Shown here: piece by piece, positions 1,244 through 64,000 of the stretch
How positions within the stretch are numbered: position 1 is the stretch's first letter
Layout of the letters: each line of letters starts with the position of its first letter
NCBI GenBank assembly: GCA_002788675.1
Contig: PFRS01000008.1
Location: forward strand, 70,848 to 134,847
Reading direction: 5' to 3'
Length of the DNA stretch: 64,000 bases
DNA from: Candidatus Pacebacteria bacterium CG_4_9_14_0_2_um_filter_40_15
Lineage (GTDB): Bacteria > Patescibacteriota > Microgenomatia > UBA1400 > PJMF01
Notes under the pieces: generated by a model
The model's input: only the letters and a program-made list of their open reading frames with translations
Database searches by the model: none
Told to the model about the DNA's origin: nothing
Position numbers and translations under genes: made by a program

Positions 1244-1789
1244 TTAGAGATTATCAGCAAGTACCTTACTTTGAAAGAGACTAAAAAGAGTAGCAAACCA
1301 TAGAATGACGATATGTAAAAAATAACAAACCAGAGCTAGTGCCCAAAAGAAAATAAGAATACCCACCAATTTAGTTGTTCCAGTATTGAGTATAGTGATC
1401 TGGGATATAATCATGAGAATCGTTAAAATACTACTTATAATTAGTATTTTTTTCTTGTTAGAAAAAGAAAGACGGTCGGAATACTGTTTTTTAGTTAAGA
1501 ATTGAAATACTACCGCAATGGATGAAAAAAAGAATGACATTTTTGAAAACAGCATAAGAATATCGCTTTCAGTTAAGGATATATCTTCAATTTGAGAAAA
1601 TAGTGGGTGCAAAGTAAGTATGTTTTCTCCACCTTGAAGTAATGAGAATACTGGAATGACACAGAAAACAAATGATATCAACACGAAAGCTGAAAGTGGA
1701 ATATAAGCAAGGTAAAGAATTGTGTAGTGCAGTATTTGAAAAATGATAGTGACTATGATTTTGTCAGTTGTTGTAATTTTTTTTTGCAT
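1244..1789 (-). CDS. Hypothetical polytopic membrane protein
   Basis: 181-aa ORF that is highly hydrophobic with several predicted TM helices. It is co-directional with the downstream ABC-2 genes. Confidence 0.4.
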   Translation of the reverse strand: MQKKITTTDKIIVTIIFQILHYTILYLAYIPLSAFVLISFVFCVIPVFSLLQGGENILTLHPLFSQIEDISLTESDILMLFSKMSFFFSSIAVVFQFLTKKQYSDRLSFSNKKKILIISSILTILMIISQITILNTGTTKLVGILIFFWALALVCYFLHIVILWFATLFSLFQSKVLADNL

Positions 1790-1803
1790 CTACAGTGCTT
1801 ACA

Positions 1804-3536: not shown

Positions 3537-3660
3537 GCCAAGACAAATATGATATCACATCTGAATTATCAAAAATAGTTGGACGATTCTAGAAAAGATA
3601 TACTGCCGAAAATGTTTTTTATTTGCTATCATGTGATTAGTATTTTCTAATAGAAAAATT

Positions 3661-5178: not shown

Positions 5179-5240
5179 TGCATACATTTTATACCAAAGC
5201 TTAAATAGAGTTTATTGTCAAAATCAAGTATACTTACTCT

Positions 5241-6113
5241 ATGACTATCGACGCATTACGAACAGCCGAGGGTATGATTACGCTTCTTGAGCTCGACAGA
5301 GTACCCGTGTTGGCCGATGCATTAGAGCTGAGAATGTCGGTTCCAGAGCAAGCGCAAATTTTAGACGAACTTACTGGAGCTATGGTTTCATCATTTTCAC
5401 CTCATGTGGCAGGAGTGGTGTTTTCACCAGAACATACGTTTAATCATATTTCACAGTTAGCTGATCAAGCTACTCCTGTGTTGAGTTTAGAGAAAAAAAC
5501 AGCAGCAGTAGACCCACTTATTCCTCCAATATTTGTAGATAACTGGGGAGTTGAAAGTGTTTCAAACAATTATGGAGTTGCCAAGTTAGAGTTGTACTAT
5601 AATCCTGCCGAAGAGCAAGCTGCTCTAAAAAAACAGATTGTGGCTGAAATTCATGACTACTGTAAATACGAAGGTATTCACTTTATTTTAGAGTTACTGG
5701 TGTATCATCGTGCCAATGAAAAACCGTCACCACAGGGCTTGCTTGATACGCAACTGACTGCGGTTCAGGAATTCAGAGACAGTTGCGATGTATTGGCGCT
5801 TGAATACCTAGGAGACAGTTTAGCTGCAGTTACGATTACAGCCGAGTTAGATATCCCTTGGATTCTTACCGGCAGAGATCAAGATTATGAGCAAACGAAA
5901 CTAGATTTGCGAGCTGCTCTAGAAGGTGGCGCCCAAGGGTTTTTACTTGGTGATATTTTTTGGCCACATATTGATCATGCCCAACATGATAGTGGTGAAG
6001 TTTCCGTCTCCATGTTAGTTGCAGAAATTCAAAAACAGGGCAGAGACCACGTGATTGAACTCAGTCGTATTACAAAAGAATTTGCTTCGGCAAATGGAGA
6101 ACAAACTACGTAG
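5241..6113 (+). CDS. Class I aldolase of the LacD (tagatose-1,6-bisphosphate aldolase) family, putative
   Basis: [13 protein letters not shown]...[28 protein letters not shown] aligns with LacD KFLLYYDIDGD...[36 protein letters not shown] matches VLKVEVP. Confidence 0.45.
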   Translation: [290 protein letters not shown]

Positions 6114-6126
6114 AAGAAAGGATCCT

Positions 6127-6429
6127 ATGAGCGGACTTATCCAAAAAATGACGTATTTATTAGTTTCACTGATTGAGCTTATGCTCTCACTTCGCTTTGT
6201 GGCGAGACTATTTGGGGCAAGTTCCCAGGCTCCTTTTATTGCTTGGCTCTATGAGAACACCGCTCCTTTGTTAGCTCCATTCTTGTATGTGTTTCCTTCT
6301 CCAAGTGTTAAGGGACGATTTGTACTCGAATTTTCAACATTGTTCGCAATTTTTGTGTACTCATTTGGTGCCTATCTCATTCTTGAAGTTATGAGCATGC
6401 TGGGAAGTTTTGAAAATAAGAAAAAATAA
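6127..6429 (+). CDS. Small hypothetical membrane protein
   Basis: The ORF-track start at 6055 overlaps the preceding gene. The ATG at 6127 (MSGLIQKM) removes the overlap. The product has two hydrophobic helices. Confidence 0.4.
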   Translation: MSGLIQKMTYLLVSLIELMLSLRFVARLFGASSQAPFIAWLYENTAPLLAPFLYVFPSPSVKGRFVLEFSTLFAIFVYSFGAYLILEVMSMLGSFENKKK

Positions 6430-6432
6430 ATT

Positions 6433-6912
6433 ATGAAAATAACTGTTACTAAAGTTTTACCGATTGCCATCAGCTTAATAGTTGCATCAATACAGCGTGC
6501 GGCCTTAGTACTTGTTGTGGCAGTGTTCGGTGTAGCATTTTTACTCGCTGCCATGCAAATTTTACCCGAAAGCTCAATACAGCCTGTTGCCTTTGCAATT
6601 GGAAGTATAGTTTTACTTGCTTATTGGATGGCTAAAGTAATTGATGCTTCACTTCAAGCTAAAGGAAGTTATATGGAACTTTCAACGTCACAACTTTCTG
6701 GAGCAACTACTGGATTTAGCAGTAATAGTTTTACCGTTCCCATTAAAAAAATTGCCACTATATATATACATCAGGATTTTGTTGATAAGTTATTTGGCGT
6801 ATCTGCTATAGTGTTTACACAGATGAACTCAACAGTGAGTGTGTATGGTTTTGATCACGTCGATGCACAAGAGTTTGTTAAAAAGTTTGCCGATCTACAA
6901 AGTAAAAAATAA
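6433..6912 (+). CDS. Membrane protein with a bacterial PH (bPH_2/YdbT-like) domain, putative
   Basis: Two N-terminal TM helices followed by a C-terminal segment ([29 protein letters not shown]) typical of bPH_2 domains. Confidence 0.4.
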
Positions 6913-6926
6913 TACGAAGGACATAT

Positions 6927-7526
6927 ATGTTTACCCTCCCAAAACTTCCGTACGAATTTGCAGCCCTCGAGCCACACATCGACGCTAAAACAATGGAAAT
7001 TCATTATGGAAAGCACCATCAAGGTTATACCGATAAGTTAAACGCAGCAATTGAAGGTTCAGCATTGGCGGATCAAACAATTGAAGAGATTCTTGCTCAT
7101 GTTTCAGAAGAATCAACAGCAGTGCGTAATAATGGTGGAGGTTTTTATAACCACAGTCTATTCTGGTCCATTCTTAGCCCAAAGTCGGGTGTACCAACTG
7201 GAGCACTTGCTTCTGCAATAGATGATTCATTTGGCTCATTTGAAGAGTTTAAAACTCAATTCAGCAATGCTGCTGCCACACAATTTGGTTCTGGCTGGGC
7301 ATGGTTAGTTGTTCAAGATGGAAAGTTATCAGTAGGTTCAACACCTAACCAGGATAATCCTCTTATGGACACTACTGGTCTTGATGGTACGCCAATTCTT
7401 GGTTTAGATGTATGGGAACATGCCTATTATCTTAACTACCAAAATCGCCGACCAGACTATATCGCTGCATTCTGGAATGTTGTAAACTGGGATGAGGTCG
7501 CTCGTCGATTTGAAGCTGCCAAGTAG
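6927..7526 (+). CDS. sodA: Superoxide dismutase (Fe/Mn family)
   Basis: [31 protein letters not shown], and the DVWEHAYY motif. Confidence 0.9.
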
Positions 7527-7592
7527 TTCTACTCAGGTATATCACTAAAATTATTTTGCCCGTAAGGGCCGCAACTTGCTTAGGAAGGTCTA

Positions 7593-8177
7593 ATGTTACA
7601 GGTTATTCTTGATGTTGAAACCAAGAAAACATTTGATGAAGTCGGTGGTTTTTTTCCAGAAAAACTCGGCATCTCATTTGTTGGGGTATGTGTTCGTGAA
7701 GGTTTCACAGGAAAAGGTGAGATGCAAAGTTATTTTGAAAAAGATCTCCCAAATTTATTTCCCTTGCTTGAAAAAGCTGATGTCGTAATTGGATTCAATA
7801 TTGATAACTTTGACATGCCAACGTTTACCAATTACTACAATGCCGATATCAGTAAAATTCCAACACTCGATGTTATGAATCGCATTAAAGATAGTGTTGG
7901 TCATCGTATTGGTCTGGATGCAGTTGCTCAGGAAACACTGGGAATTGGTAAAACTGGTGATGGTCTGGATGCTATTAAGTACTTCAATAATAAGGAGTGG
8001 GAAAAGCTGGAAAAGTACTGTCTGCAAGATGTCGCAGTAACGCGAGACGTCTATGATTATGGTTTGCAAAAAGGCCATGTAAAGTTTAAAAATAAATGGA
8101 ATCGTCTTATCGAAGCGCAGGTTGATTTTAGTTTTACGCCTCAAAAAGATGCTGGGGTGCAGATGAGTCTTTTATAA
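7593..8177 (+). CDS. RNase H-like 3'-5' exonuclease (DEDDy type), putative
   Basis: The ILDVETK exo I-like motif and a C-terminal YCLQDV (YxxxD) motif. Confidence 0.45.
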   Translation: MLQVILDVETKKTFDEVGGFFPEKLGISFVGVCVREGFTGKGEMQSYFEKDLPNLFPLLEKADVVIGFNIDNFDMPTFTNYYNADISKIPTLDVMNRIKDSVGHRIGLDAVAQETLGIGKTGDGLDAIKYFNNKEWEKLEKYCLQDVAVTRDVYDYGLQKGHVKFKNKWNRLIEAQVDFSFTPQKDAGVQMSLL

Positions 8178-8322
8178 CACATGTATGTTTTGACCCGGTT
8201 GAGGCATGTAGTGATATATTAAAGAATTTGGTTTCAACCTACACAAAATTACGCGTGCTGTGAGCTTATTTTATGTAACAAATGTAATTTTGTAGTGTCA
8301 AAACATACATGTGTTATAAAAG
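8169..8322. repeat. Perfect 26-bp inverted repeat (8169-8194 and 8297-8322) enclosing 102 bp of intergenic DNA
   Basis: cttttataacacatgtatgttttgac is the exact reverse complement of gtcaaaacatacatgtgttataaaag. Smaller nested inverted repeats lie inside. Confidence 0.8.
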
Positions 8323-8348
8323 TGGGTAATGTTAGAATAAACAGAACT

Positions 8349-8888
8349 ATGACACTAAACACTTCAACTCCCAAACTTTGTTATACCGCAGGCGGCATGC
8401 TCATCCACGAAGGCAAAGTCTTGCTAGTTAAACACAAAAAGCTCGGCATTTGGCTCAATCCAGGTGGTCACATCGAAGAAGATGAGCTTCCACATCAGGC
8501 CGCAGAACGTGAATTTTGGGAAGAGACTGGCGTAAAAGTTTGCGCGATAGATCCGTACAATGATTCATTGGTGGGAAAAGGTACTGATTCTGAGTTTTTT
8601 CCAAATCCCATTTCAACCAATGTGCACTGGGTGAACCGTGAGAGTTATGATTTGCGTATGCAGGCAGAAGACTCCTTGAAACGTGTTCCAACAAAAAAAT
8701 GGAAAAGAGGTTGTGAGCAACATGTAGGTTTCTTCTATTTACTCGCATCAGTTGGTAGCGTTGAGTTCACACAAAATGTTGAAGAAACAGATGGTATAGC
8801 TTGGTTTTCTAACGAAGAAATTTCAACACTAGAGACTACAGAAGATATTCGCACAGAAATTTTGCGTGGGTTTGCCTTAAAAAAATAG
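8349..8888 (+). CDS. NUDIX hydrolase
   Basis: Nudix box GGHIEEDELPHQAAEREFWEETGV. The start was moved to the ATG at 8349 (MTLNT), downstream of the inverted repeat. Confidence 0.75.
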   Translation: MTLNTSTPKLCYTAGGMLIHEGKVLLVKHKKLGIWLNPGGHIEEDELPHQAAEREFWEETGVKVCAIDPYNDSLVGKGTDSEFFPNPISTNVHWVNRESYDLRMQAEDSLKRVPTKKWKRGCEQHVGFFYLLASVGSVEFTQNVEETDGIAWFSNEEISTLETTEDIRTEILRGFALKK

Positions 8889-8999
8889 TACTCACTTTGC
8901 TACAAAATTACTTTGATTCTTTCAGGTTTCTCTCAGTATTTTTTAATACACTACTTCCTGTTATAAGAGCATATACTATGAATAAAGAAAGTAAGTCAT

Positions 9000-9464
9000 A
9001 TGAAAGACGCAGAAGAATCAAAAGGTAAAAAGTTGGACGCAGTTTCAGATTCGCAGATTACTCCACATTCCCCAAAAAAGAAAAAAACCGAAAAACGGAT
9101 GGTACTGAAAGTTGCTTTAGGTGTATTGGCAGTTATTGTGGCACTTAGTGCATTTCAATATTTCAGTTATCAAGCTCAGGCTGCAAAACGTCGTGAAGCT
9201 CAAATTAAGCAAGAAGAAATTCTGGTGTCTCACTGGACCGAGCAAGGTCTAAGCGACGAAGAAATTCAAACAAAACTAACAGAAACCCGCCGAGAAAGTT
9301 TTAATCCTGATGATGCTCCGTTGATGTTCCAAATTCTTCGTACCGTGCGCCATGCAACCGGCACTGGTCCAGGTACAGGTGGTGGCCCTGGTTCTGGAAT
9401 GGGTGATGGTCTTACCGGTGGTACTCCTGGAACAGGTATGGGTGGAGGGCAACAAGCTCGCTAA
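9000..9464 (+). CDS. Hypothetical membrane-anchored protein with a Gly-rich C-terminal tail
   Basis: N-terminal TM helix and a TGTGPGTGGGPGSGMGDG tail. Confidence 0.4.
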   Translation: MKDAEESKGKKLDAVSDSQITPHSPKKKKTEKRMVLKVALGVLAVIVALSAFQYFSYQAQAAKRREAQIKQEEILVSHWTEQGLSDEEIQTKLTETRRESFNPDDAPLMFQILRTVRHATGTGPGTGGGPGSGMGDGLTGGTPGTGMGGGQQAR

Positions 9465-9486
9465 TCTGAAAATTTAGAAAGAACGT

Positions 9487-10710
9487 ATGAAAAAAGTCAT
9501 GATTAAAGTGAGTTCTCTTTGGAAGGCATTCCTTTCCCTCTCAGTATTCAAAAAAGCACTATTGGTAGTAGTTATTATTGCGATAGGATTATTTATTAAT
9601 TCTAGACTGAATACAACTGAAGACATTGCCTACAAAACAAGTATGGTTTCAACAGGAAATGTGGCAGATATTATTTCTGAAACAGGTGAAATTTCATCTA
9701 CATCTCAAGTCTCAGTTACTTCAACAATCACTGGTTTTGTTACAGAAGTGTATGTTGACAATGGTGACCAAGTAAAGAGAGGTCAAAAATTATTTTACGT
9801 ACAGAGTAGTGCTACTTCGGCAGAACGAGCGGCAGCATACTCAAATTATCTTAAAGCAAAAGACTCTCTCGAAGCAGCAAAGAGTACTGCCTACAGTTTA
9901 GAATCAAGCATGTGGAAGGCTCATGAAACCTTTGAAGCAGATTCACTCGACACTGATTTGTCGGTTGATGATCCAATCTATATTCAAACAGATCGTGACT
10001 GGCAAGCTGCAGAACAAAAATATATTGATCAAAAAGCAGTTATTTCACAAGCTGAAGCGAGTGTATCAAGTGCTTGGTTGGCTTATCAAGCAACCATTGA
10101 TGGAGCAGTAACTGCGCCAATTGATGGCACCGTTGCTAACTTTGCAGTTGCAAAGGGTCAGCAAGTGGCGAGTTCACAAGCAGCTTTGTTGATAAAAAGT
10201 GATTCAGAAACTTGGGTCACGCTAGCAATTAGTGAAACCGATATTCCTGACATTAAACCAGGGCTTGCCGCAACTGTGTCGATTGATGCATTGGATGGCA
10301 GAGAAATTGAAGGCACTGTGCAGCGTGTAGATGAAGTGGGAACAGTTAGTTCTGGAGTCGTTACCTATACGGCTTATATTTCATTACACGATTCCCAAAA
10401 CACGGAGGTGAATGAACTCTCCGGCGTATTGCCAGCAATGACGGTCCAGGTTGATATTCAAACAAAGAGTGCCGAAAATGTTGTCGTAGTTCCTAATGGT
10501 GCAATTAAACCATACAAAGGCGGTAAAGCAGTGCAAGTTGTTGATGCCAGTTCTGGTGAGTTACTCTATGTGCCTGTCGAAGTAGGTATTGTTGGTTTAA
10601 CTGAATCGGAAATTCTTTCAGGAGTTTCGGAAGGTCAAGAAATTGTGACTTCTAGTACTTCATCTAGCTCGTCCGACAAACAAGGTGGTTTATTAAATCC
10701 AGGTAGATAG
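9487..10710 (+). CDS. Efflux transporter periplasmic adaptor subunit (HlyD/MacA-like membrane fusion protein)
   Basis: N-terminal TM anchor, long coiled-coil region, and a C-terminal beta-barrel-type sequence. It sits immediately upstream of MacB-type ATPase and permease genes. Confidence 0.65.
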   Translation: MKKVMIKVSSLWKAFLSLSVFKKALLVVVIIAIGLFINSRLNTTEDIAYKTSMVSTGNVADIISETGEISSTSQVSVTSTITGFVTEVYVDNGDQVKRGQKLFYVQSSATSAERAAAYSNYLKAKDSLEAAKSTAYSLESSMWKAHETFEADSLDTDLSVDDPIYIQTDRDWQAAEQKYIDQKAVISQAEASVSSAWLAYQATIDGAVTAPIDGTVANFAVAKGQQVASSQAALLIKSDSETWVTLAISETDIPDIKPGLAATVSIDALDGREIEGTVQRVDEVGTVSSGVVTYTAYISLHDSQNTEVNELSGVLPAMTVQVDIQTKSAENVVVVPNGAIKPYKGGKAVQVVDASSGELLYVPVEVGIVGLTESEILSGVSEGQEIVTSSTSSSSSDKQGGLLNPGR

Positions 10711-10712
10711 CT

Positions 10713-11444
10713 ATGTCTTCAAATAACAAAAAGAACGATAAAACGGCTACTATCTCATTTCGGGATGTGACCAAAACGTATATTACTGGTCCAGTTACCT
10801 ACCAGGCTCTTAAAGGCATCAGCTTCGATATTTTTCCTGGAGACTTTGTCGCAATCATGGGTCCTTCTGGAAGTGGTAAGTCGACTATAATGAACATTAT
10901 TGGAGCGCTTGATACGCCTACTAGTGGTCAGTACTTGCTGAAAGGTCGTGACATCAGTTCATACGAAGAGGATGATTTATCTGAAATTAGAAACGAAGAG
11001 ATTGGATTTATTTTTCAGTCATTTAACCTGTTACCTCGCACTTCAGTGCTTAAGAATGTTGAGCGTCCTATGATGTACGCAGGAGTTCCAGCCGCTGAGC
11101 GAACCAAGCGAGCGCTGCAGAGTTTAGCAGTTGTTGGACTAGAAGATAAAGCACACAATCTTTCAAATCATATTTCAGGCGGTCAGATTCAACGTGTGGC
11201 AATTGCTCGAGCATTGGTTATGAATCCCGCATTACTACTGGCAGATGAACCTACTGGTAACTTAGATAGTGTGACGGCCTATGAAATTATGGATTTTTTA
11301 ACTGATTTAAATAAAAAGGGCAGCACTATTGTTTTGATTACGCATGAAGATGACATTGCAGAATATGCCGATCGTATTATTCACATTAAAGATGGAGAAA
11401 TTCTTCGCGAAGTACATGGCAAAAAAAATAAGAGTAGAAAGTAG
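10713..11444 (+). CDS. ABC transporter ATP-binding protein, MacB/LolD family
   Basis: Walker A GPSGSGKST, signature ISGGQIQRVAIARAL, Walker B LLLADEPTGNLD. Confidence 0.85.
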   Translation: MSSNNKKNDKTATISFRDVTKTYITGPVTYQALKGISFDIFPGDFVAIMGPSGSGKSTIMNIIGALDTPTSGQYLLKGRDISSYEEDDLSEIRNEEIGFIFQSFNLLPRTSVLKNVERPMMYAGVPAAERTKRALQSLAVVGLEDKAHNLSNHISGGQIQRVAIARALVMNPALLLADEPTGNLDSVTAYEIMDFLTDLNKKGSTIVLITHEDDIAEYADRIIHIKDGEILREVHGKKNKSRK

Positions 11445-49088: not shown

Positions 49089-49832
49089 ATGAAATCACCA
49101 AAGTTACTCACTTTCTATAACTCGTATCATCAAAAAAATGATGTGTATAGTAAACCAATTTCAGATGGCAACTTTACCTATTTCTATTTCATTAAATACT
49201 TTGCAAAACATTTTAAAGGTAGGTACACAGTAAACACCACGGTGTTGGATGTCGGGTGTGGGGTAGGGAGTCTCTCATTTTATCTTGCCTCTAAAGGTAT
49301 GCTTGTGCATGGTATTGATATTTCTACCCGTGCTATTGCACTTTGCAAGGAAGTTAGGAAACGTTCTGGTCTAACCCATGCAAGTTTTAGTAGAAAAGTT
49401 CTTGATGAGATACCAGAAAAAAATGATATTGTAATTTGTTCAGAAATAATCGAGCATATTCCTGATGAGGCTGCATTTGCTCAAATGCTTAGTATAAAGT
49501 TAAAGAAAAATGGCTATCTTTTTTTAAGCACTCCTAGCAAAGCAAACATGTTTTATCCAATGGGGATTTTTGCAAAATTTGATACCGAAGTGGGGCATGT
49601 GCGCCGCTATACTGAAGAGTCGCTTAGAAAAGTTCTAGAACAGCACGGTTTTCGCATTGAGGCCTTGTATCGGATTGAAGGAATTCTTAGAAATGTATTG
49701 TATACAACAAAATTAGGTTTTTTGATTAAATATATTCGCGGTCCGCTCGTACCACTTTTCCATTTTATAGATTCGCTTTTTATCCGTATCTTTGGTCCAT
49801 GTAATTATTTTGTTGTGGCACGAAAAAAATGA
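49089..49832 (+). CDS. Class I SAM-dependent methyltransferase
   Basis: Motif I VLDVGCGVGSL and motif post-I VHGIDIS. Confidence 0.75.
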   Translation: MKSPKLLTFYNSYHQKNDVYSKPISDGNFTYFYFIKYFAKHFKGRYTVNTTVLDVGCGVGSLSFYLASKGMLVHGIDISTRAIALCKEVRKRSGLTHASFSRKVLDEIPEKNDIVICSEIIEHIPDEAAFAQMLSIKLKKNGYLFLSTPSKANMFYPMGIFAKFDTEVGHVRRYTEESLRKVLEQHGFRIEALYRIEGILRNVLYTTKLGFLIKYIRGPLVPLFHFIDSLFIRIFGPCNYFVVARKK

Positions 49833-50869
49833 AAGTAGTTCACCTTGCTCAGTTATATTGGCCGCATGTTGGAGGCATAGAAAAACATATTGAGTTGCTC
49901 GCATCGGCACTTAAAAAAAAGAACTGTGAAACGGTTGTAGTAACCAAAAAATATGACGTATCTTTGCCATCATTCGAGCGTAAGGGCAGTACCACTATTC
50001 ATCGTTTTGATGTGAGTGAATCATCTCCATTTCAGCATAAACTTTCGGTTTGGAAAGGTATTTGGAACTCTAGAAATGTTCTTTTTCAGGCAGACGTTAT
50101 TCACGTGCATGATGTTTTCTGGTGGTTATTACCTCTCTTACCATTCTTACTACTTAAAAATAAAAAAGTATTTATGACATTTCATGGCTATGAGGGCAGC
50201 GAAGCTCCACAGTGGAAGCAAAAGTTTTGGCACAAGTCTGCTGAAGCATGGAGCAACGGTAACTTGTGTATTGGTGGTTTTCATACCAAGTATTATGGTA
50301 TACAGCCAACCTTGGTATCTTTTGGTGCTGTTGAATCAAAGATAAAACAGAGAGCAAAGTCTGCAACAAAAAGAACTGCTATTTTTATTGGTCGATTACA
50401 ACAAGATACTGGATTTTTAGAGTATGTAGAAGCAATTAAGGTCCTGCGTGATCGAGGTGAAGTTTGGCAGTTGGATGTATACGGAGAGGGTTCACAGCTG
50501 ACACAGGCTCAAGCATTTTGTGAAGAGAACGCACTTACTAAGCAAGTACATTTTCATGGCTTTGTGGCAAATGCAGATAGATTCTTGCCTAAATACTCGG
50601 TAGCGTTTGTTTCACGCTATCTGGCTCTTTTAGAAGCACTTTCAGCTGGTGTTCCTGTCGTAGCCCAGTATACTAATAATATTAAGAAAGATTATTTAGT
50701 GTTGGATTCACCTTTTGCAGAGTGGATTTCAGTTGCACGAACTCCTAAACAGATTGCTGATTGTGTTCAAGAAAAAAGAAAAGGAATGAGTAAGGCACAA
50801 AAATGGGCAGATTCTCAGACTTGGAGCAAAATGGCAGACACGTATCTTACACTCTGGACACAAAGCTAG
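49829..50869 (+). CDS. Glycosyltransferase family 4
   Basis: N-terminus MKVVHLAQLYWPHVGGIEKHI, and a C-terminal GT-B Rossmann region with the EX7E-like motif LALLEALSAGVPVV. Confidence 0.7.
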   Translation: MKVVHLAQLYWPHVGGIEKHIELLASALKKKNCETVVVTKKYDVSLPSFERKGSTTIHRFDVSESSPFQHKLSVWKGIWNSRNVLFQADVIHVHDVFWWLLPLLPFLLLKNKKVFMTFHGYEGSEAPQWKQKFWHKSAEAWSNGNLCIGGFHTKYYGIQPTLVSFGAVESKIKQRAKSATKRTAIFIGRLQQDTGFLEYVEAIKVLRDRGEVWQLDVYGEGSQLTQAQAFCEENALTKQVHFHGFVANADRFLPKYSVAFVSRYLALLEALSAGVPVVAQYTNNIKKDYLVLDSPFAEWISVARTPKQIADCVQEKRKGMSKAQKWADSQTWSKMADTYLTLWTQS

Positions 50870-50870
50870 T

Positions 50871-52511
50871 ATGAAAGCATCAAAAAAAACAATAAAATTA
50901 AATCTTGGGTGCGGCATGGATCATCGTAATGGGTATATAAATATTGATGCTGTTTCAGCTGTGAATCCAGATTTAGTACACGATATTTCAAAAACACTGC
51001 CGTACAAAGACGGAACTGTTCAAGAAGTTATTGCTCAGGATATTCTTGAACACTTTATCTTCGATGATTTTATTTTTGTTATAAGTGAAATCGCTCGAGT
51101 GCTTAAAGATGGTGGCACGTTACACGTGCGTACTCCAAATGTTGATGCCATACTGCATCAGTTTGAAGATGACAAAGAAGTGCGCAATATATTTCTCTAT
51201 GGTAGTACGGCACACAGAACTGATACTGGTGTTTTTGGAGCACATAAAATTGGTTTTACACGAACACGGCTCATTGCTGAGTTACTAGTGTATGGCTTAG
51301 AAGTTACTTCTATTGGAACCAATGAAACCAACTTTGAAGCTTCATTTGTAAAATCAACGCCTCTCAAAGCAGAAAGTATTTTATTTTTAAATCAAGCGTT
51401 AAGTATTGGAGGTGCTGAAGTTTTTGATACAGATCTTTTTTCTTCACTAAAGCAACAAGGTGTCCGAGTAGCCGCTTATACAAACAACACTATCTTTGCA
51501 CATATGTTGCATTTTAGTGAAATTTCTACACTTTCAGTTCCTTGGGTCGTAGATTTTATTGGAAATGTAAAAGGTTTAATAAAAGCTCTAGTATATGGAC
51601 CACTGTTATTTTTTTGGTATGGGAAAACGGTGTATGCTCATCGGTCAGTGGATGTGATGGTGGTATCAGGTTTCACTGAGAAGATACTTGCATCCTTTTG
51701 GGCATATGTTTTTGACATACCAATGGTTTGGATTGAGTTTGGGCCACTCACAACAGTACTAAATAAATGTATGCAGTTGCCTAAATTATTGTATAGATTG
51801 GTTGCCGACCTTCCTGAAAGAGTGATTGTGCCATCGCAAAACACCGCCGCCGATTTGTTAAGGAGTGCACGAATTTCATTAGCAAAAATTGAGTACATAC
51901 CTTGTGGAACAAGTCAACAAAGTAGTAAGAAATTTTCTGATGTGGCGCAACCAGTGATAGTCTGTCCCTCTCGACTTGAAAAGGGAAAAGGTCAGGATAT
52001 TTTGCTTGAAGCATTTGCTCAGGTCTTGAAAGATATTCCAAAGGCTCATTTGCAAATTATTGGTGTCGGAGACTTTATTACTGAACTCGAAGCATTAGTA
52101 ACTAAGTTGGGGATACAAAAATCAGTTAGTTTTTTGGGTAGAGTTCGCGACGTTGATGAATACCTGCAAAAGGCACAGCTTGTTGTTTTTCCTTCAGTTT
52201 GGGAGTTAGAAGGATTTGGATTGGTTACCATTGAAGCTATGGCTTTGGCAAAGCCGGTAGTGGCATTTAATAGAGGTCCAACAAATGAGATTGTTGTAGA
52301 TGGCGAGACCGGAGTGTTAGCAGAGCCCGGTGATTCTGGGGCTCTTGCTGAAGCGATAGTAAAGGTAATGCACTCTTCGAAACTTCGTATGAAATTAGGA
52401 ACTGGTGGCTTAAAACGATTTAATGATCTCTACCGTATTGATTTGGTTGCAGAGCAGTACCAGCTAGCTTTTAGGCGTGCTATTGCTTGGCATAGGGCAG
52501 GAAAAAAGTAA
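50871..52511 (+). CDS. Fusion protein: N-terminal SAM-methyltransferase-like domain plus C-terminal GT4 glycosyltransferase
   Basis: N-terminus KLNLGCGMDHRNGYINID...DILEH (Methyltransf_11/23-like). C-terminus EGFGLVTIEAMALAKPVVAFNRGPTNEIVVDGETG (GT4 EX7E motif). Confidence 0.6.
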   Translation: MKASKKTIKLNLGCGMDHRNGYINIDAVSAVNPDLVHDISKTLPYKDGTVQEVIAQDILEHFIFDDFIFVISEIARVLKDGGTLHVRTPNVDAILHQFEDDKEVRNIFLYGSTAHRTDTGVFGAHKIGFTRTRLIAELLVYGLEVTSIGTNETNFEASFVKSTPLKAESILFLNQALSIGGAEVFDTDLFSSLKQQGVRVAAYTNNTIFAHMLHFSEISTLSVPWVVDFIGNVKGLIKALVYGPLLFFWYGKTVYAHRSVDVMVVSGFTEKILASFWAYVFDIPMVWIEFGPLTTVLNKCMQLPKLLYRLVADLPERVIVPSQNTAADLLRSARISLAKIEYIPCGTSQQSSKKFSDVAQPVIVCPSRLEKGKGQDILLEAFAQVLKDIPKAHLQIIGVGDFITELEALVTKLGIQKSVSFLGRVRDVDEYLQKAQLVVFPSVWELEGFGLVTIEAMALAKPVVAFNRGPTNEIVVDGETGVLAEPGDSGALAEAIVKVMHSSKLRMKLGTGGLKRFNDLYRIDLVAEQYQLAFRRAIAWHRAGKK

Positions 52512-52515
52512 CTGT

Positions 52516-53412
52516 ATGCCAAACGTTTCACTTATTTGCACTGTTTTAAATGAAGAAAATTCTATATTTTCATTACTACAGAGTATGAGTGATCAAACTC
52601 GTATTCCCAATGAAGTGCTTTTTGTTGATGGCGGTTCAACCGACAAGACTGTTTCAAAACTAAAGAAAGCAAAAAAACAGTTTCCACAGTTGAATATAAA
52701 AATAATTGTTCAAAAATCTAATCGCAGTGAAGGTAGAAATATCGCAATCAAAAACGCCAAGTATGAAAGTATCGCAATTACCGATGCGGGTTGCACACTT
52801 GATCCTCAGTGGCTGTATGAGCTGGTTAAAAAACAATTGCAAACAGGAGCAGATGTAATAGCTGGATATTATCGTGCTGAACCGAAGACCCCATTTGAAG
52901 AAGCTGTAATCCCGTACACACTGGTAATGCCAGACAGAGTAGACCCTCTTAATTTTCTACCAGCAACACGCTCAATGCTTATTTCAAAAAAGGCATTTAA
53001 AAAAGCTGGAGGTTTTAATTCGAATTTAAATGTAAGTGAAGATTACGAGTTTGCTCATCGATTAAAAGCTGGTGCGTTTTCAATAGTGTTTGCTCATGAA
53101 GCCACGGTTGTTTGGTATCCAAGGAAAACCGTGAGCTCATTTTTTACTATGGTTGCCAGTATGGCAGCTGGAGACGCAAAAGCCAATGTGATTCGTCCAA
53201 AAGTGTATTTAGTGTTCATGCGATATTTTGTTTTCACCTCGTTATACTTTGTGAATTTTTCTTTGTTGATAGTTCTGCTTTTGATCTATACTTTTTGGGC
53301 GATCTATAAAAACCACACTTATGTGTCTGTCCGCGCGTTACCATGGTTAGGTGTACTTCAGTACGTAGCAGATGTTGGTGTAGTTCTGGGTACCTTAGGA
53401 ATTATCAAATAG
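52516..53412 (+). CDS. Glycosyltransferase family 2 with C-terminal TM helices
   Basis: VSLICTVLNEE...FVDGGSTDKT...ITDAGC (DxD region). The start was placed at the ATG at 52516, after the previous stop. Confidence 0.75.
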   Translation: MPNVSLICTVLNEENSIFSLLQSMSDQTRIPNEVLFVDGGSTDKTVSKLKKAKKQFPQLNIKIIVQKSNRSEGRNIAIKNAKYESIAITDAGCTLDPQWLYELVKKQLQTGADVIAGYYRAEPKTPFEEAVIPYTLVMPDRVDPLNFLPATRSMLISKKAFKKAGGFNSNLNVSEDYEFAHRLKAGAFSIVFAHEATVVWYPRKTVSSFFTMVASMAAGDAKANVIRPKVYLVFMRYFVFTSLYFVNFSLLIVLLLIYTFWAIYKNHTYVSVRALPWLGVLQYVADVGVVLGTLGIIK

Positions 53413-59622: not shown

Positions 59623-60522
59623 TTAATACACAATTGGGCTATACTCAACCTTCAATATCTGGTCATTTTCATCAACAATCACAGTTGCAGTAGCTTCTTT
59701 TGACTGCAGAATAACTATAGAAACAGGTGTGACACTAACAGCGCTTGTTGAACTTTGAAATTGATTGAAAAATTTTTCAGCTAGTACTTGTTGTTGCTCA
59801 GTCACCCAAGATGCTTTCTTTTCAGCAAATACTTTATTTCTAGTTTGCACGCTTTCTTGAATGCTCTCTAAAATTAATGTTTCAATGCAGGAGTGCTCTT
59901 CTACACTTTTATTACTACAGAGTTTAGGATCGATTGATTCGTAATAATAAAAATATCCAATGGTGTCTTTTGGATTAGAGTCAAGGTAATCTGTGGTGAT
60001 ACAATCTTGAGTTTTATTTGTGCATATATCTGAAGGAAAAGAAATAAATGCAATGTATTGATCGCGATAGTTATAAGTAGTGATGTAGGCGTTAACTTGT
60101 TTTCTTATGACTTCTTCCCAGGATGTTTTTGCATTTTCAGAAATGATTTCAGAATCAATTTCATTTAACGGCTTATTCATTAGCTGTGTTAGAAGATATT
60201 CATTTAGGTTTTCTAACTTGAAATGGGGTTCATTCTGAAAGATAAAAAAATTGTCATTCTTTGCAAATTCATTACTATCCTTTTGAAGTGGTGTTTCTTC
60301 AACTTGTTCTGACAGTGATTCAAAGTTTTGATTTTCAATTACTGCTGCCTTATCTTTTTTGAAGAACAACATACATACGACAAGACCAGTCAGAATAAAA
60401 GCTCCACTAATAAGTAGTATGAGGAAAGGTGAGATTGAACGCACATTTTTTGATTCTCGAATATTTAGTTCTGAAAGATTTTCATTAGTTATTTCTGGAT
60501 TTATTGGCTGAATTGAATTCAT
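59623..60522 (-). CDS. Hypothetical single-pass membrane protein with Cys-containing extracytoplasmic domain (first gene of operon)
   Basis: 299 aa: a TM helix near residue 35 and six Cys residues in the C-terminal part. Confidence 0.4.
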   Translation of the reverse strand: MNSIQPINPEITNENLSELNIRESKNVRSISPFLILLISGAFILTGLVVCMLFFKKDKAAVIENQNFESLSEQVEETPLQKDSNEFAKNDNFFIFQNEPHFKLENLNEYLLTQLMNKPLNEIDSEIISENAKTSWEEVIRKQVNAYITTYNYRDQYIAFISFPSDICTNKTQDCITTDYLDSNPKDTIGYFYYYESIDPKLCSNKSVEEHSCIETLILESIQESVQTRNKVFAEKKASWVTEQQQVLAEKFFNQFQSSTSAVSVTPVSIVILQSKEATATVIVDENDQILKVEYSPIVY

Positions 60523-60778
60523 ATGTACTATACTAGCAGATTTTGCTTAGCTTATACTTAGAGAGAAGCTAAGACATACTACTAAATCCCGACCGTAAAA
60601 TTGTGGGAGTAGCTTCATGTTATTGGCTAAAATACTGCGGGGAGTGTGGGATTTACGACTCGCTACTATTTGTAACTACTTATGGAAGCTCGCATGCACT
60701 AGGGTGACTCGCGCAGCTGCGCTCGTGCGCCCGTCGCGAACTATCTTCTGCATACCTTTTGCCACTTGGTCATAAAAA

Positions 60779-60806
60779 AAATACCCAATTTGGGTATTTT
60801 TTTTAT
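60779..60806. terminator. Perfect palindromic bidirectional terminator
   Basis: aaaaaaaatacccaatttgggtattttttttt. Confidence 0.6.
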
Positions 60807-60807
60807 G

Positions 60808-60889
60808 GCGGAGAGCGAGGGATTTACCCTCGTCAGGCTCAAATTGTACATTGAGTGATGAGTTCGCTTGATCGGGCACAAGTCATCCC
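60808..60889. repeat. Repeat copy A: a 17-nt duplicate of the tRNA-Ser(TGA) 3' end plus a conserved ~65-bp segment X
   Basis: 60808-60824 gcggagagcgagggatt equals the tRNA 3' end at 60945-60961. 60821-60843 and 60858-60882 are identical to the inverted copy at 62807-62875. Confidence 0.75.
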
Positions 60890-60945
60890 TCACAATGCAA
60901 TTACCTAATAAAAAAACAAGCTAACGCTTGTTCTTTTATCAGGTG

Positions 60946-61028
60946 CGGAGAGCGAGGGATTCGAACCCACGGGCCCCGAAAGGCGCGGTTTTCAAGACCG
61001 ATGCAATTGACCACTCTGCCAGCTCTCC
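60946..61028 (-). tRNA. tRNA-Ser (anticodon TGA), type II with long variable arm
   Basis: The reverse complement GGAGAGCTGGCAGAGTGGTCAATTGCATCGGTCTTGAAAACCGCGCCTTTCGGGGCCCGTGGGTTCGAATCCCTCGCTCTCCG has acceptor GGAGAGC/GCTCTCC and anticodon loop CTTGAAA. There is one T-stem mismatch, and CCA is not encoded. Confidence 0.7.
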
Positions 61029-61140
61029 ACTTTGTATGTTAATGGTTTGTTTTTTGTTCTGGTACAAACACTAACCAGGTAGCTATTATATACTGACTTG
61101 CCTACTTTTTCGAGCAGTGAATATAGTGTACACTAAGTGC

Positions 61141-61983
61141 ATGACCGAAGATGGTATTCTCCCTACTAGCACACCAGCTCCACAGCCTGAAAAGACTGTG
61201 TTTCAACAGCCAACTTCTGGATTTGCAGCAGCAGGTGATGAACCCGTTATCTTTCCAGTGGCTCCAGTAGATCCGACAGTTTTTCAAAAAGCAGTGCAAG
61301 CAGAGCAGAAGAACACAGTAGTAATGGCACAAGTTGAGCCAAAAGAGGATTCTGTGCCAGTAACTCAAGTAGAGCCACCAATTCAAGCGCAACAACAGCA
61401 ACAACCTCGTATTCCAGAAGAGGAGCAGCAACAAGACTATGACGAGCAAGTTGAAGCGTATGATTATTCAGGTTATTTTCCAGATGCACTCAGACCACAA
61501 CCAGAAGAGTTACTCTATAGTTGGTCCGCTCCAAGTAGACCTTTTAAAAAACACAATAGAAATTACTACACTACCATAGCGGTGATTGTTTTGTTGATTT
61601 CACTTATTTTAGTCTTTGCAGGCCAATTTATCCCAATGGCGGTTGTTTGCGCTGTAGCATTTATGGTGTACGTAATTAACTCTGTACCACCTGAAGAAAT
61701 TCAATACGGTATTACGACATATGGTGTGCGAATTGGAGAAAAATTGTATTATTGGGATATGATGACTCGTTTTTGGTATGGAAGTAAGTATGATCAAAAA
61801 TTGCTCTATATCCAGATTGTTGAATTTCCTGATCGTCTGACTTTAGTTATTGGCGATGCGAAGCAAGAAATCTTAACAAGCATTTTTGCTGAGTTGCTTC
61901 TTCTTGAGAAACCTCCACTCACCACCTATGAAAAGATTGCTAAGTGGTTGCAAGATAAGTTTCCGTTAGATTTAGATTCCTAA
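61141..61983 (+). CDS. Hypothetical membrane protein with Pro/Gln-rich N-terminal region
   Basis: A PQPEKTVFQQPTSG...QQQQQP low-complexity N-terminus, two TM helices, and a C-terminal domain. The start is the ATG at 61141 or the GTG at 61117. Confidence 0.4.
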   Translation: MTEDGILPTSTPAPQPEKTVFQQPTSGFAAAGDEPVIFPVAPVDPTVFQKAVQAEQKNTVVMAQVEPKEDSVPVTQVEPPIQAQQQQQPRIPEEEQQQDYDEQVEAYDYSGYFPDALRPQPEELLYSWSAPSRPFKKHNRNYYTTIAVIVLLISLILVFAGQFIPMAVVCAVAFMVYVINSVPPEEIQYGITTYGVRIGEKLYYWDMMTRFWYGSKYDQKLLYIQIVEFPDRLTLVIGDAKQEILTSIFAELLLLEKPPLTTYEKIAKWLQDKFPLDLDS

Positions 61984-62037
61984 GTTTCTAGAGATACTCA
62001 AAAATAAGTATGTTTGATATAATACCTCACATCAAGT

Positions 62038-62111
62038 GCGCTCATAGCTCAGTTGGATAGAGCATCAGTTTGCGGAATTGAAGGTCGCAGGTTCGAGCCC
62101 TGCTGAGCGCA
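62038..62111 (+). tRNA. tRNA-Arg (anticodon GCG)
   Basis: GCGCTCATAGCTCAGTTGGATAGAGCATCAGTTTGCGGAATTGAAGGTCGCAGGTTCGAGCCCTGCTGAGCGCA is a standard 74-nt cloverleaf. It has A20, C35, G37 and A73; anticodon positions 34-36 are GCG. Confidence 0.7.
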
Positions 62112-62137
62112 CCCTGTCTGTCTTAGAAAATTTTATA

Positions 62138-62668
62138 ATGATCGAAAGAAGACAACCAACCCCTCTTGAATTAGAATTAGAAGCTTCACTCGAAGATAAT
62201 CACGTTGCGTCTTTAGAAGTATCACCTGATGATTTAGTTTCTGTTGTGCAGTTATTGTCACAGCAATTGTTGGAAAAAAATGGAGCTTCAAAAATTTCAT
62301 TTAAAAAAGTTGCAGTTGAAATTAAAAATCAATCAGCTGAAATTTCGATTGTTGTCAGTATTGCTCTTCCTGTTTCTGCCACATTTACTATTTCGTATGC
62401 ACTTTCAAACTCATATTCTCAACTAGGAACGCTGTCAGTTACAAACCTTAAGGTTGGGATTGAAGCAAGCAGACTAGCAAAGCTTTCTCTTAAGGTTCTA
62501 CAAGTTGAAAAACAGATTAAAGATACTTTGGCAAATCTTAACGAAGTGCTCGCGCTCAATCCACCACCACTAGTTACAGAGCGCGGTTTAGCTTTTACCA
62601 AGATACATCTCCATTTGGAAAATACACATTTGGCGGTACAATTAAGATCGACAAGCGTGTCAACGTAG
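62138..62668 (+). CDS. Hypothetical protein
   Basis: The start was trimmed to the ATG at 62138 (MIERRQP) so it does not overlap tRNA-Arg. Its stop overlaps the first nt of tRNA-Ser. Confidence 0.35.
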   Translation: MIERRQPTPLELELEASLEDNHVASLEVSPDDLVSVVQLLSQQLLEKNGASKISFKKVAVEIKNQSAEISIVVSIALPVSATFTISYALSNSYSQLGTLSVTNLKVGIEASRLAKLSLKVLQVEKQIKDTLANLNEVLALNPPPLVTERGLAFTKIHLHLENTHLAVQLRSTSVST

Positions 62669-62753
62669 GAAGGATGCCGGAGTGGTTTAACGGCCAGTTC
62701 TCGAAAAGCTTGGGAGACTCTGTCTCACGGGGGTTCGAATCCCCCTCCTTCCG
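62668..62753 (+). tRNA. tRNA-Ser (anticodon CGA), type II
   Basis: GGAAGGATGCCGGAGTGGTTTAACGGCCAGTTCTCGAAAAGCTTGGGAGACTCTGTCTCACGGGGGTTCGAATCCCCCTCCTTCCG has acceptor GGAAGGA/TCCTTCC, T-arm GGGGG-TTCGAAT-CCCCC and anticodon loop CTCGAAA. Confidence 0.75.
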
Positions 62754-62806
62754 CATGTATAAAAAACAGGCTGTAAGCCTGATTTTTATACATATGAGTA
62801 TGTAAG

Positions 62807-62888
62807 GGGATGTCTTGTGCCCGATCAAGCGAACTCATTAAGGTATATTAGTTTGAGCCTGACGAGGGTAAATCCCCCTCCTTCCGCA
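62807..62888. repeat. Repeat copy B (inverted relative to copy A): segment X plus an 18-nt duplicate of the tRNA-Ser(CGA) 3' end
   Basis: 62871-62888 aatccccctccttccgca equals the tRNA 3' end at 62738-62755. The X portion is about 85% identical to the reverse complement of copy A. Confidence 0.75.
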
Positions 62889-62925
62889 CGTAACTACTGA
62901 GCGAGCCATAGAAAAGAACGTCTGT

Positions 62926-64000
62926 ATGCTTCCAATTCAACCCCCATGCATCCCAAAATATTTTGATTTTTCACGAAAAGTAAAGACACCTCACAACGCA
63001 CACCTTTTTTCACGGTTTTGCCTTTCTTGGGAAGATGGTCTTTGGCATGTATTGAAAGTGCATGCTATTCCCAAAGGGTCAGTTGTATTGGTTCCCAGTT
63101 TTTTCTGCTGGGATGTAGTTAAAAATATGCAGCAGCATGGGTTAGTGCACAAAGTCTATGCAGTGGATAAAAACTTACAACCAATTGAAGCAGAGTTTAT
63201 AGCCCAACTTAAACAATGGAAACCAGCTGTGGTGATTATTTTTCATTCTGTTGGGATTACAAATAATCTCTTTAAAAACCCAAGTAAGTGGCTGCCTTTT
63301 GTGTCTATAGATGCTTTGATTATTGAAGATAGTGTGCACCGTGTTGTGGATTCTTCACGAATTTCTTTTATTACTAAGAATCACTATGTCATTGATAGTT
63401 TACGCAAAGTTGTTCCAATCCAAGGAAGTTGGATGTATGCAGGTCACCGTATTCCAAAAATTCCTGTTAGTGTTTCTGTGCGAACAGTTTGGTATAGAGT
63501 ATTAATACTTTTTTGGTGGTTAGTCATGCAGTTTTTTTTAGTCTTAGTGTACTATTCACGTGCCTCAAGCATCGAAAAAAAAGGAAATACTTTAGCTGAG
63601 TTGGCGATGTTGAGGGGATATGAAGCAGTTGGGGTTCATCTGCAGCCAAGTCCTGGTCACTCAATTATGGCATTTTTATCTAGAAAAATTGCTCTTCAAA
63701 AAAATTTCAGTATCAAAAAAAAACAGGCGCTGCGGTATGCTGAGCGCTTGCAGAGCTGTGCAGATTCTAAAAACTTTTTTTTCATTTCGATGCAGGCATC
63801 AGACGCACAAGAGCTACGTGGGTTTCCTCTTGGCATAGAGCTTAGGGTGGCTGATGATTTTCTTGCTTATCTGAGAGAACACACTCTGTCTGTACGTTTT
63901 GAACTCAACGATAGTATTTGGAGTTCTCGTCAAAAAATTGTGTATCTGCCAATGGGGCTGCATGTACAGGATACAGAAATTGATAGTGTTTGTGCGATTA
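62926..64000 (+). CDS. DegT/DnrJ/EryC1/StrS aminotransferase-family-like protein, 3' end outside the window (not in the ORF track)
   Basis: Frame 1 is open from 62872 to the window end. The first ATG is at 62926. VVLVPSFFCWDVVKNMQQHGL..VHKVYAVD resembles the DegT EVIVPSFTF...PVFVD region, and ALIIEDSVHRV resembles VIEDCAQA. Confidence 0.45.
   Translation, partial: MLPIQPPCIPKYFDFSRKVKTPHNAHLFSRFCLSWEDGLWHVLKVHAIPKGSVVLVPSFFCWDVVKNMQQHGLVHKVYAVDKNLQPIEAEFIAQLKQWKPAVVIIFHSVGITNNLFKNPSKWLPFVSIDALIIEDSVHRVVDSSRISFITKNHYVIDSLRKVVPIQGSWMYAGHRIPKIPVSVSVRTVWYRVLILFWWLVMQFFLVLVYYSRASSIEKKGNTLAELAMLRGYEAVGVHLQPSPGHSIMAFLSRKIALQKNFSIKKKQALRYAERLQSCADSKNFFFISMQASDAQELRGFPLGIELRVADDFLAYLREHTLSVRFELNDSIWSSRQKIVYLPMGLHVQDTEIDSVCAI

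Follow-up and report, generated by a model that had tools for sequence, protein, structure and literature searches.

Short gene-less units behind the tRNA-Ser genes of a Candidatus Pacebacteria genome as probable miniature integrative elements

Genomic islands and prophages that target tRNA genes employ tyrosine integrases and leave classical attL and attR sites at which a 3' segment of the tRNA gene is duplicated; serine tRNAs are frequent targets and tandem accretion of elements occurs. In the Candidate Phyla Radiation, mobile DNA is poorly known and the general assumption is that these tiny genomes contain little of it. In Prochlorococcus, tycheposons form tRNA-anchored islands through successive integrations that are parted by partial tRNAs; they are kilobases long and defined by a tyrosine recombinase together with replication genes (bioRxiv 10.1101/2020.12.28.424599). 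Passages on cis-mobilisable elements (CIMEs) in two papers describe att-flanked elements without recombination or conjugation genes, which are thought to be moved only via a related autonomous element in tandem (PMC5704250, PMC6323972). Here we describe a locus in a 64,000-nucleotide stretch of Candidatus Pacebacteria bacterium CG_4_9_14_0_2_um_filter_40_15 (contig PFRS01000008.1; this whole 64-kb stretch is "the window" below), where two tRNA-Ser genes are each followed by a terminator hairpin, a segment of about 65 nt, here called X, and a copy of their own 3' end. An earlier note had read these repeats as the signature of site-specific integration at a tRNA gene, left either by remnants or miniature elements of one family or by a mobile 2-kb unit. 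Coordinates are positions in the window, and labels of the form L0xx denote the related loci and contigs that were compared.

The divergent tRNA-Ser pair and the order of the parts behind it, as given in the earlier note, were confirmed by ARAGORN, Rfam and a repeat search. Over 60300-63400 three tRNAs were the only features above Rfam gathering scores; both tRNA-Ser genes are amongst them, so an intact tRNA is kept at one junction. On the 3' side of each gene, a long, A/T-flanked hairpin with a T-run is followed by X and then by an exact copy of the 3' end of that tRNA. For tRNA-Ser(TGA) this repeat is 17 nt (60808-60824 equals 60945-60961), and for tRNA-Ser(CGA) it is 18 nt (62871-62888 equals 62738-62755) and extends to 22 nt at 95% identity; the chance of a given 17-mer recurring within 300 nt is about 2e-8. 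The two X copies are inverted and, against the earlier estimate of about 85%, measure 84% identity over cores of 64 nt each, with one 32-nt block at 97%. Two near-invariant blocks, GGGATGnCTTGTGCCCGATCAAGCGAAC and GAGCCTGACGAGGGTAA (blocks A and B), flank a diverged centre. A 23-mer and an 18-mer from these blocks each occur twice in the window, where 0-0.03 occurrences are expected, and the window holds no further copy of the X blocks. A T-arm-like hairpin noticed earlier (CGAGGG-TAAAT-CCCTCG), which block B and the repeat can form, is present in the minimum-energy folds, and the X insert contains no open reading frame (ORF). The region is 100% identical across four independent Joint Genome Institute (JGI) metagenome assemblies and is therefore not an assembly artefact; the source metagenomes include JGI 3300025805, 3300008001, 3300007985 and 3300003830. 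The features are as follows, from the tRNA outwards on either side.

61028..60945, minus strand: tRNA-Ser(TGA), called by ARAGORN; Rfam tRNA score 49.1 bits
60945-60961, minus strand: tRNA-side repeat copy (attL core), the last 17 nt of tRNA-Ser(TGA), AATCCCTCGCTCTCCGC; exact direct repeat
60905..60942, no strand: terminator hairpin 1, a terminator-like site within the 137-bp insert that now serves tRNA-Ser(TGA); absent there in L037, L039 and L048
60894-60904: spacer between X copy 1 and terminator hairpin 1
60825..60893, minus strand: X copy 1, from GTGAGGGATGACTTGTGCCCGATCAAGCGAAC to GAGCCTGACGAGGGTAA, with inverted repeats, inside the 137-bp insertion; nhmmer E = 8e-27
60806..60824, minus strand: displaced original 3' end of tRNA-Ser(TGA) (attR core), the 17-nt exact repeat plus CA, ...CTCTCCGCCA; colinear with the native end and terminator of L037
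60771..60807, no strand: terminator hairpin 2, an inverted repeat with perfect 18-bp arms; 36 of 37 nt equal the hairpin directly 3' of tRNA-Ser(TGA) in L037
60654..60770, minus strand: Y, a GC-rich element of about 115 nt ending ...AAATAGTAGCGAGTCGTAA; nhmmer E = 2e-45 against the Y copies of L037 and L039
60636..60653, minus strand: degenerate tRNA-3'-end tail of the Y unit, AATCCCACACTCCCCGCA, with 13/16 matches to tRNA-Ser(TGA); the same position in L039 holds an exact tRNA-end copy
62668..62754, plus strand: tRNA-Ser(CGA), called by ARAGORN; Rfam tRNA score 43.8 bits
62738-62755, plus strand: tRNA-side repeat copy of tRNA-Ser(CGA), AATCCCCCTCCTTCCGCA
62755..62793, no strand: bidirectional terminator hairpin 3' of tRNA-Ser(CGA), an inverted repeat that is terminator-like on both strands
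62804..62870, plus strand: X copy 2; nhmmer E = 1e-26
62871..62888, plus strand: attR core, the 18-nt exact copy (direct repeat) of the tRNA-Ser(CGA) 3' end

The clearest evidence for insertion came from aligning the TGA side with three relatives, L037, L039 and L048, whose neighbouring ORF is 58, 50 and 63% identical to that of the window, respectively. In all three, an identical tRNA-Ser(TGA) is joined directly to a terminator and Y, with no X. Between ...GGGTTCG and AATCCC..., the window is longer by exactly 137 bp, which comprise a fresh tRNA 3' end, terminator hairpin 1 and X. The insertion is clean and bounded by the 17-bp repeat, and the empty site differs from the window by just the element and one repeat. 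The downstream repeat reads on to ...CCGCCA, with an encoded CCA, and straight into terminator hairpin 2 (CATAAAAAAAATACCCA..), and this stretch of the window (...CCGCCATAAAAAAAATACCCAAATTGGG...) is colinear with the native tRNA end and terminator of L037. The 137-bp gap and this colinearity together show that the apparent duplicate downstream is the 3' end that the gene originally had, and that the present tRNA end came with the insert. Site-specific integration at the tRNA 3' end, as first proposed, is thus backed by an X-free locus in three relatives. The TGA copy has the textbook attL/attR geometry of such an event, and hairpin 2 is the terminator that tRNA-Ser(TGA) used before X arrived, as well as the terminator of an older Y unit.

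The island itself, consisting of tRNA-Ser(TGA) on the minus strand, a 280-aa ORF, tRNA-Arg(GCG) and tRNA-Ser(CGA), is syntenic in every related contig fetched (L024, L034, L037, L039-41, L042, L043, L044, L048, L049 and L062, representing ten related lineages). Five of these ten lineages (L034, L042, L043, L044 and L062) carry the island without X, Y or the repeats.

Y is found in the position that X takes, with a tRNA terminator on one side and a tRNA-end copy on the other, and the sequences of X and Y are unrelated. The array behind tRNA-Ser(TGA) in the window reads tRNA, X, tail, Y, tail, that is, tandem units parted by partial tRNA ends, of which the Y tail is the oldest attR-like site. 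Orthologous Y copies lie 3' of tRNA-Ser(TGA) in L037, L039 and L048. In L037, Y follows both tRNA-Ser genes, with a tail that matches at 16/16 for CGA and with one mismatch for TGA; in L039 and L049 it follows tRNA-Ser(TGA) with a 16/16 tail, and in L048 it again follows both genes. The earlier idea of miniature, integrase-less elements is supported, but not that of one family, since at least two unrelated families, X and Y, are present. An inserted unit of either kind consists of the last 17-18 nt of the tRNA, a terminator hairpin and X or Y. After insertion the tRNA still ends correctly and is followed by a terminator, while its original end and terminator are displaced by 133-142 bp (X) or about 170-185 bp (Y). 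The contig of L048, the closest relative, ends within Y on both sides (1-54 and 2029-2058), which suggests that short repeats of the X/Y type break metagenome assemblies at tRNA-Ser loci.

The association of X with tRNA ends held in other genomes, where X recurs behind tRNA-Cys and other tRNA-Ser genes with a tail that mostly equals the end of the local tRNA. A metagenome scan with block B plus the next base as the pattern, excluding the two known copies, returned three true relatives. In L022, X lies 3' of tRNA-Cys(GCA) and its terminator, and 18/18 nt of the tail equal the tRNA-Cys 3' end. L024, where the orthologous ORF is 48% identical, has X 3' of tRNA-Ser(TGA), followed by an island with type I restriction-modification and RhuM genes. 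In L023, X stands without a tRNA in the 1.1 kb of upstream contig, and its tail, ATCCCACCGCTTCCGC, is the 3' end of tRNA-Ser(GCT) in L058, another Patescibacterium. L039 and L049 carry X about 790 bp 3' of tRNA-Ser(CGA), past a 190-aa HEPN gene, with a tail that equals the end of that tRNA at 16/16. Tails equal to the local tRNA were thus found for both X copies of the window, X of L022 and L039, Y of L037 (CGA) and Y of L039 (TGA). Apart from one copy with a single substitution, block B is identical at 22/22 positions throughout, while orthologous host proteins are about 48-50% identical, and X is conserved far beyond its surroundings. The decaying remnants suggested earlier do not fit, as the X and Y copies are conserved far better than decay would leave. 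The base before GGGAT in X covaries with the first tRNA-specific base of the tail in five of six copies (A-U, G-C twice, C-G and U-A), a pattern that fits cores adapted to each target tRNA. The only transposases seen were an IS30-family fragment at the contig end of L023 (3431-3844, about 0.7 kb upstream of X) and an IS256-like gene in L045, far from tRNAs.

Another tail form, ATCCCAC(A/G)CTCCCCGCA, is shared by Y of the window and the HEPN cassette of L039. Tails reading ATCCCAC(A/G)CTCCCCGC (or CCCCATGCTCTCCGC) are located at 2103-2118 in L039, around 8025-8040 in L049 and at 60637-60652 in the window, and match no tRNA in the loci compared; these tails could stem from the 3' end of a different tRNA, perhaps one more tRNA-Ser.

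Several relatives carry longer arrays, in which newer units adjoin the tRNA and older ones are pushed outward, some units carry one gene, and the best-preserved repeat sits nearest the tRNA. On the CGA side of L039 and L049, the tRNA is followed by the HEPN gene, a GTTCCAA..TCA motif with a foreign tail, a hairpin, X, the exact repeat, the last 40 nt of Y and a tail. On the TGA side of L049, the order is tRNA, terminator, Y, exact repeat, a 91-aa ORF, the GTTCCAA..TCA motif and a tail with 2 mismatches. In L058, a HEPN gene that is 81% identical and shares the upstream region lies directly 3' of a different tRNA-Ser-like gene, and a decayed motif and tail then follow. The identical HEPN protein was always found at the same locus, and the 81% and 70% homologues represent one more tRNA-adjacent case and one without a tRNA. 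Cassette sizes range from 0.13 to 0.8 kb, with single ORFs. X, Y and the ORF cassettes have unrelated bodies with a common junction to ATCCC and the tRNA 3' end only, so the common feature is the recombination junction and not the body.

The tRNA-Ser-like gene of L058 (5866-5953) has the unusual anticodon ACT (loop TTACTAA), and the HEPN gene starts 47 nt downstream. In L024, the region directly 3' of X (1443-11320) encodes HsdR, HsdM and HsdS with an embedded RhuM and a ResIII/helicase, and ends at a conserved DUF2779 gene; no second tRNA-end copy was present at its far end and no integrase within 11 kb. L037 likewise has a RhuM gene (3965-4987), in this case 3' of the Y unit.

The insertion geometry, the matched tails, the existence of multiple families, the arrays and the patchy distribution are best explained, with a probability that we put at roughly 65%, by X (about 65 nt) and Y (about 115 nt) being the bodies of two non-coding, non-autonomous miniature integrative families of Patescibacteria (Microgenomates) that enter tRNA 3' ends by conservative site-specific recombination. 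A recombinase, its exchange point and current activity are what we infer beyond these observations. The circular form of a unit would comprise a core matched to the tRNA (from AATCCC to the 3' end), a terminator that serves the tRNA once rebuilt, and X or Y as the conserved arm, and strand exchange would occur inside the common segment from AATCCC to the 3' end, so that the present 3' end of tRNA-Ser(TGA) would have been supplied by the element. The recombinase, most likely a tyrosine integrase, would be encoded elsewhere and act in trans, and the conserved X blocks (GGGATGaCTTGTGCCCGATCAAGCGAA, GAGCCTGACGAGGGTAA) and the Y blocks would form the putative arm of attP that binds the recombinase or an accessory protein. 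Each core would be matched to its target, with Ser-TGA, Ser-CGA, a Ser-GCT-type tail and Cys represented. The predicted attB(TGA) junction is ...GGGTTCGAATCCCTCGCTCTCCGCCATAAAAAAAATACCC and the predicted attP(X-TGA) junction is ...CCTGACGAGGGTAAATCCCTCGCTCTCCGCACCTGATAAAAGAAC. Excision between neighbouring cores may account for the absence of Y behind the CGA copy of the window, though Y is present there in L037 and L048. The same tRNA sites would also accept single-gene cassettes and larger defence islands, and X/Y miniature elements may have seeded the small islands at tRNA genes.

Several results weigh against this interpretation. Pfam scans found no integrase or recombinase beside any copy or in about 30 window ORFs, as the earlier note had observed for the locus, and the precomputed Pfam annotation of about 25 related loci contains no recombinase; the tyrosine integrases that the note proposed to look for next to tRNA-Ser genes in relatives were thus not seen there. 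Pfam domains of the hallmark tyrosine recombinase and replication genes were likewise missing from all flanking genes. No autonomous relative bearing X or Y was found among the loci compared or in IMG/VR, where the X and Y blocks gave chance matches or nothing against viral contigs, and no excised circle or within-population empty site was detected, the four metagenome copies of the species being identical. The terminators beside X and Y resemble native tRNA terminators, which leaves the exact extent of the inserted CGA unit unproven. The X tail of L024 is unlike its tRNA-Ser(TGA), with no matching repeat within 11 kb. In addition, Y sits at the orthologous place in four species with about 90% conservation, so a cellular function rather than mobility is possible for it. 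As to where X might have come from, a phage origin was rejected after four IMG/VR scans with X and Y blocks had yielded chance matches or nothing, and an 18-mer of block A gave chance matches in unrelated phyla only when searched against representative genomes, a set that evidently does not include the source species.

An alternative takes X and Y for genes of small structured RNAs or for tRNA 3'-trailer RNAs, with a 3' tail that copies the acceptor/T-arm 3' strand of the adjacent tRNA. Such RNAs would mimic a tRNA, serve as a decoy or work by pairing of their 5' segment with the tail, and the repeat would be functional and no recombination scar. This is unlikely, despite the strong conservation of both sequences between species whose orthologues are about 50% identical. 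X does have a consensus fold, in which block A pairs with block B and is closed by N-GGGAU/AUCCC-N', but all pairs other than N/N' are invariant, leaving one covarying pair. Its folding energy is no better than that of shuffled sequences in five of six copies (z about 0) on either strand and with DNA or RNA parameters, the exception being the TGA copy of the window, and the same holds for all copies of Y on either strand. On the tRNA-sense strand, five positions of the Y helices hold G-U pairs, and pairing is preserved where L039 has a different internal hairpin and L048 a shifted helix. The left edges of some Y copies are complementary to their own tails, but comparison of cognate and swapped duplex energies is ambiguous, with cognate duplexes not consistently the more stable. 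No sigma-70-like promoter was found for X or Y on either strand, a strong intrinsic terminator lies directly ahead of each element (X behind tRNA-Ser(TGA) is flanked by two bidirectional terminators), and Rfam at E <= 10 returned tRNAs only, with nothing convincing over X or Y, all of which makes an RNA role for X unlikely. Furthermore, the elements are missing from half of the related lineages, the TGA copy of the window is a clean insertion, and three unrelated bodies have only the junction in common. Given one covarying pair and shuffle-like energies, we treat secondary structure in X and Y as unproven and, on the pattern of conservation, would read the conserved blocks primarily as sequence-specific protein-binding DNA.

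The same arrays could be built by a dedicated tRNA-anchored capture system, whose recombinase recognises tRNA-Ser and tRNA-Cys genes over the stretch between T-loop and 3' end and stacks tiny cassettes there, with X and Y as its recombination sites, possibly as folded single strands. This reading rests on the single covarying pair and the array architecture, and we consider it possible but rather improbable. Its strictly integron-like form, with X, Y or one gene (for example HEPN) as serially captured cassettes and X and Y as attC-like folded strands in which the N-GGGAT/ATCCC-N' stem rebuilds a duplex core, is distinctly unlikely. The small cassettes each end in a site joined to ATCCC and the tail, with the newest by the tRNA, their sizes and single ORFs are as would be expected, the closing N/N' pair covaries, and the left edge of X carries an inverted, imperfect copy of the first 6-9 nt of the core. 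However, no integrase lies beside the tRNA that would serve as attI, the hairpins behave thermodynamically like shuffles, X is conserved in sequence and not in structure alone, unlike attC, and the covariation involves a single pair in six sequences. That the units are instead inert, immobile leftovers of larger islands or prophages deleted down to attL and attR is very doubtful. It would agree with the lack of a recombinase, with the larger islands (restriction-modification, RhuM) at the same sites in relatives and with the degenerate tails (window Y, TGA of L037 and the Z tails), yet one and the same 64-nt X at four different tRNAs in different organisms is not what separate deletions would produce, blocks of 22-27 nt are identical while neighbouring proteins fell to 48% identity, and X behind tRNA-Ser(TGA) of the window came as a 137-bp unit beside a pre-existing Y. 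The probability is negligible that the 2-kb segment bracketed by the inverted X copies moves or inverts as a whole and has X for its terminal inverted repeats. This alternative of the earlier note is ruled out by the synteny of the island in relatives, where gene order is kept in ten lineages, five of them without X or Y; moreover, each outer repeat belongs to its own adjacent tRNA and one X is a separate 137-bp insertion.

Some more specific candidates were also rejected. Folded strands or hairpins as the essential form of X were dropped: a consensus fold exists, but its energies are no better than those of shuffles and a single pair covaries. Known RNA families, including ribozymes, were ruled out by the silence of Rfam; a hammerhead ribozyme was considered because CUGACGAG and GCGAAC are box-like, but their order and the absence of GAAA after stem II fit no permutation. 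On the other strand, the 18 nt complementary to the tRNA 3' end resemble a primer-binding site, and the TGA and L023 tails carry CCA. Retro-insertion was nevertheless rejected, as the CCA of the TGA copy is the native encoded one (seen in L037), other tails lack CCA and the geometry is unlike tRNA- or target-primed synthesis. A guide-RNA scaffold, such as a TnpB/Cas12-like 3' guide or the delocalised CRISPR RNA of a CRISPR-associated transposon, was excluded for want of such a protein in the vicinity and of a promoter, and because the unit is too short.

Between the X copies lie two ORFs and a third tRNA, all outside the feature.

62037..62114, plus strand: tRNA-Arg(GCG), called by ARAGORN and Rfam; not part of the feature

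The island tRNA-Arg has the anticodon GCG in every lineage examined (also L024 152-224, L034 10791-10863, L037 3537-3611 and L039 1242-1318); the usual bacterial anticodon for this codon box is ACG (read as ICG). The 280-aa ORF (61117-61983, probable start 61141) encodes an N-terminus that is variable and Q/P-rich and a membrane domain that is C-terminal and conserved, and it has no Pfam match. It has 95 homologues at E < 1e-5, annotated in Patescibacteria only (Woesebacteria, Pacebacteria and "Patescibacteria group"), and in Microgenomates it always lies between tRNA-Ser(TGA) and tRNA-Arg. ARAGORN calls of a transfer-messenger RNA (tmRNA) that overlap tRNA-Ser(TGA) and run into the adjacent ORF (L034 9859-10107; L035 1-248) are almost certainly false positives. 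Further away, a conserved cluster of methyltransferase and glycosyltransferase (GT4/GT2) genes at 49089-53412 also occurs in L010, L039, L042 and L043; in all relatives a few kb separate it from the tRNA island, and the intervening genes vary by lineage.

If the miniature-element interpretation is right, the tRNA-Ser and tRNA-Cys genes of Microgenomates would be active integration hot spots for units that go down to about 135 bp without a gene, are conserved across deep lineages and are matched to several different tRNAs. Such units would escape island finders that rely on integrases, and could mark sites of gain and loss of defence genes (HEPN, restriction-modification, RhuM). Should a dedicated recombinase be found, X and Y would be ready-made compact att sites, and if cassette capture proved to be the mechanism, these ultra-small genomes would have an integron-like gene-capture platform on their tRNA genes.

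Amongst known systems, the elements are most like tRNA-targeting islands and prophages, with which they share a direct repeat from the T-loop to the tRNA 3' end, a tRNA restored by element-borne sequence with a terminator, displacement of the original end, serine tRNA targets and tandem accretion. They differ in being 133-190 bp long and gene-less, with no integrase in or near them, and in the use of one short body at four different tRNAs, with the core matched in each case. Tycheposons likewise target tRNAs in a streamlined genome, push older elements outward, leave remnants and partial tRNAs in small islands and carry defence or adaptive cargo (bioRxiv 10.1101/2020.12.28.424599), whereas the units described here have no recombinase or replication genes, reside in another host phylum and show no sequence relation. 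The attL and attR flanks and the absence of an integrase or recombination module recall CIMEs, which the passages cited present as kilobase derivatives of known integrative and conjugative or integrative and mobilisable elements in Firmicutes (PMC5704250, PMC6323972); the units here are non-coding, about 135 bp long and have no known parent. They belong neither to tycheposons nor to CIMEs, as they have neither the defining recombinase and replication genes nor a known parent element. Integron cassettes are comparable in that small non-coding or single-ORF cassettes are stacked at one site, each with a recombination site of inverted-repeat character at its end, but the present locus has no IntI, attI, Pc or R'/R'' GTTRRRY core, X is conserved at the sequence level, the X hairpin has no energetic support and the anchor is a tRNA. 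Miniature inverted-repeat transposable elements (MITEs) are of the same size class, gene-less, presumably mobilised in trans and present in multiple copies within and across genomes; the units described here lack proper terminal inverted repeats, and their 17-18-bp duplication is always the tRNA 3' end, which fits site-specific recombination and not staggered transposase cuts. Collectively, X and Y behave as tRNA-targeting integrative elements do in general, and are unusual in their gene-less size of about 135 bp, their deeply conserved arm, their use of at least four tRNA cores and their occurrence in a phylum of ultra-small genomes.

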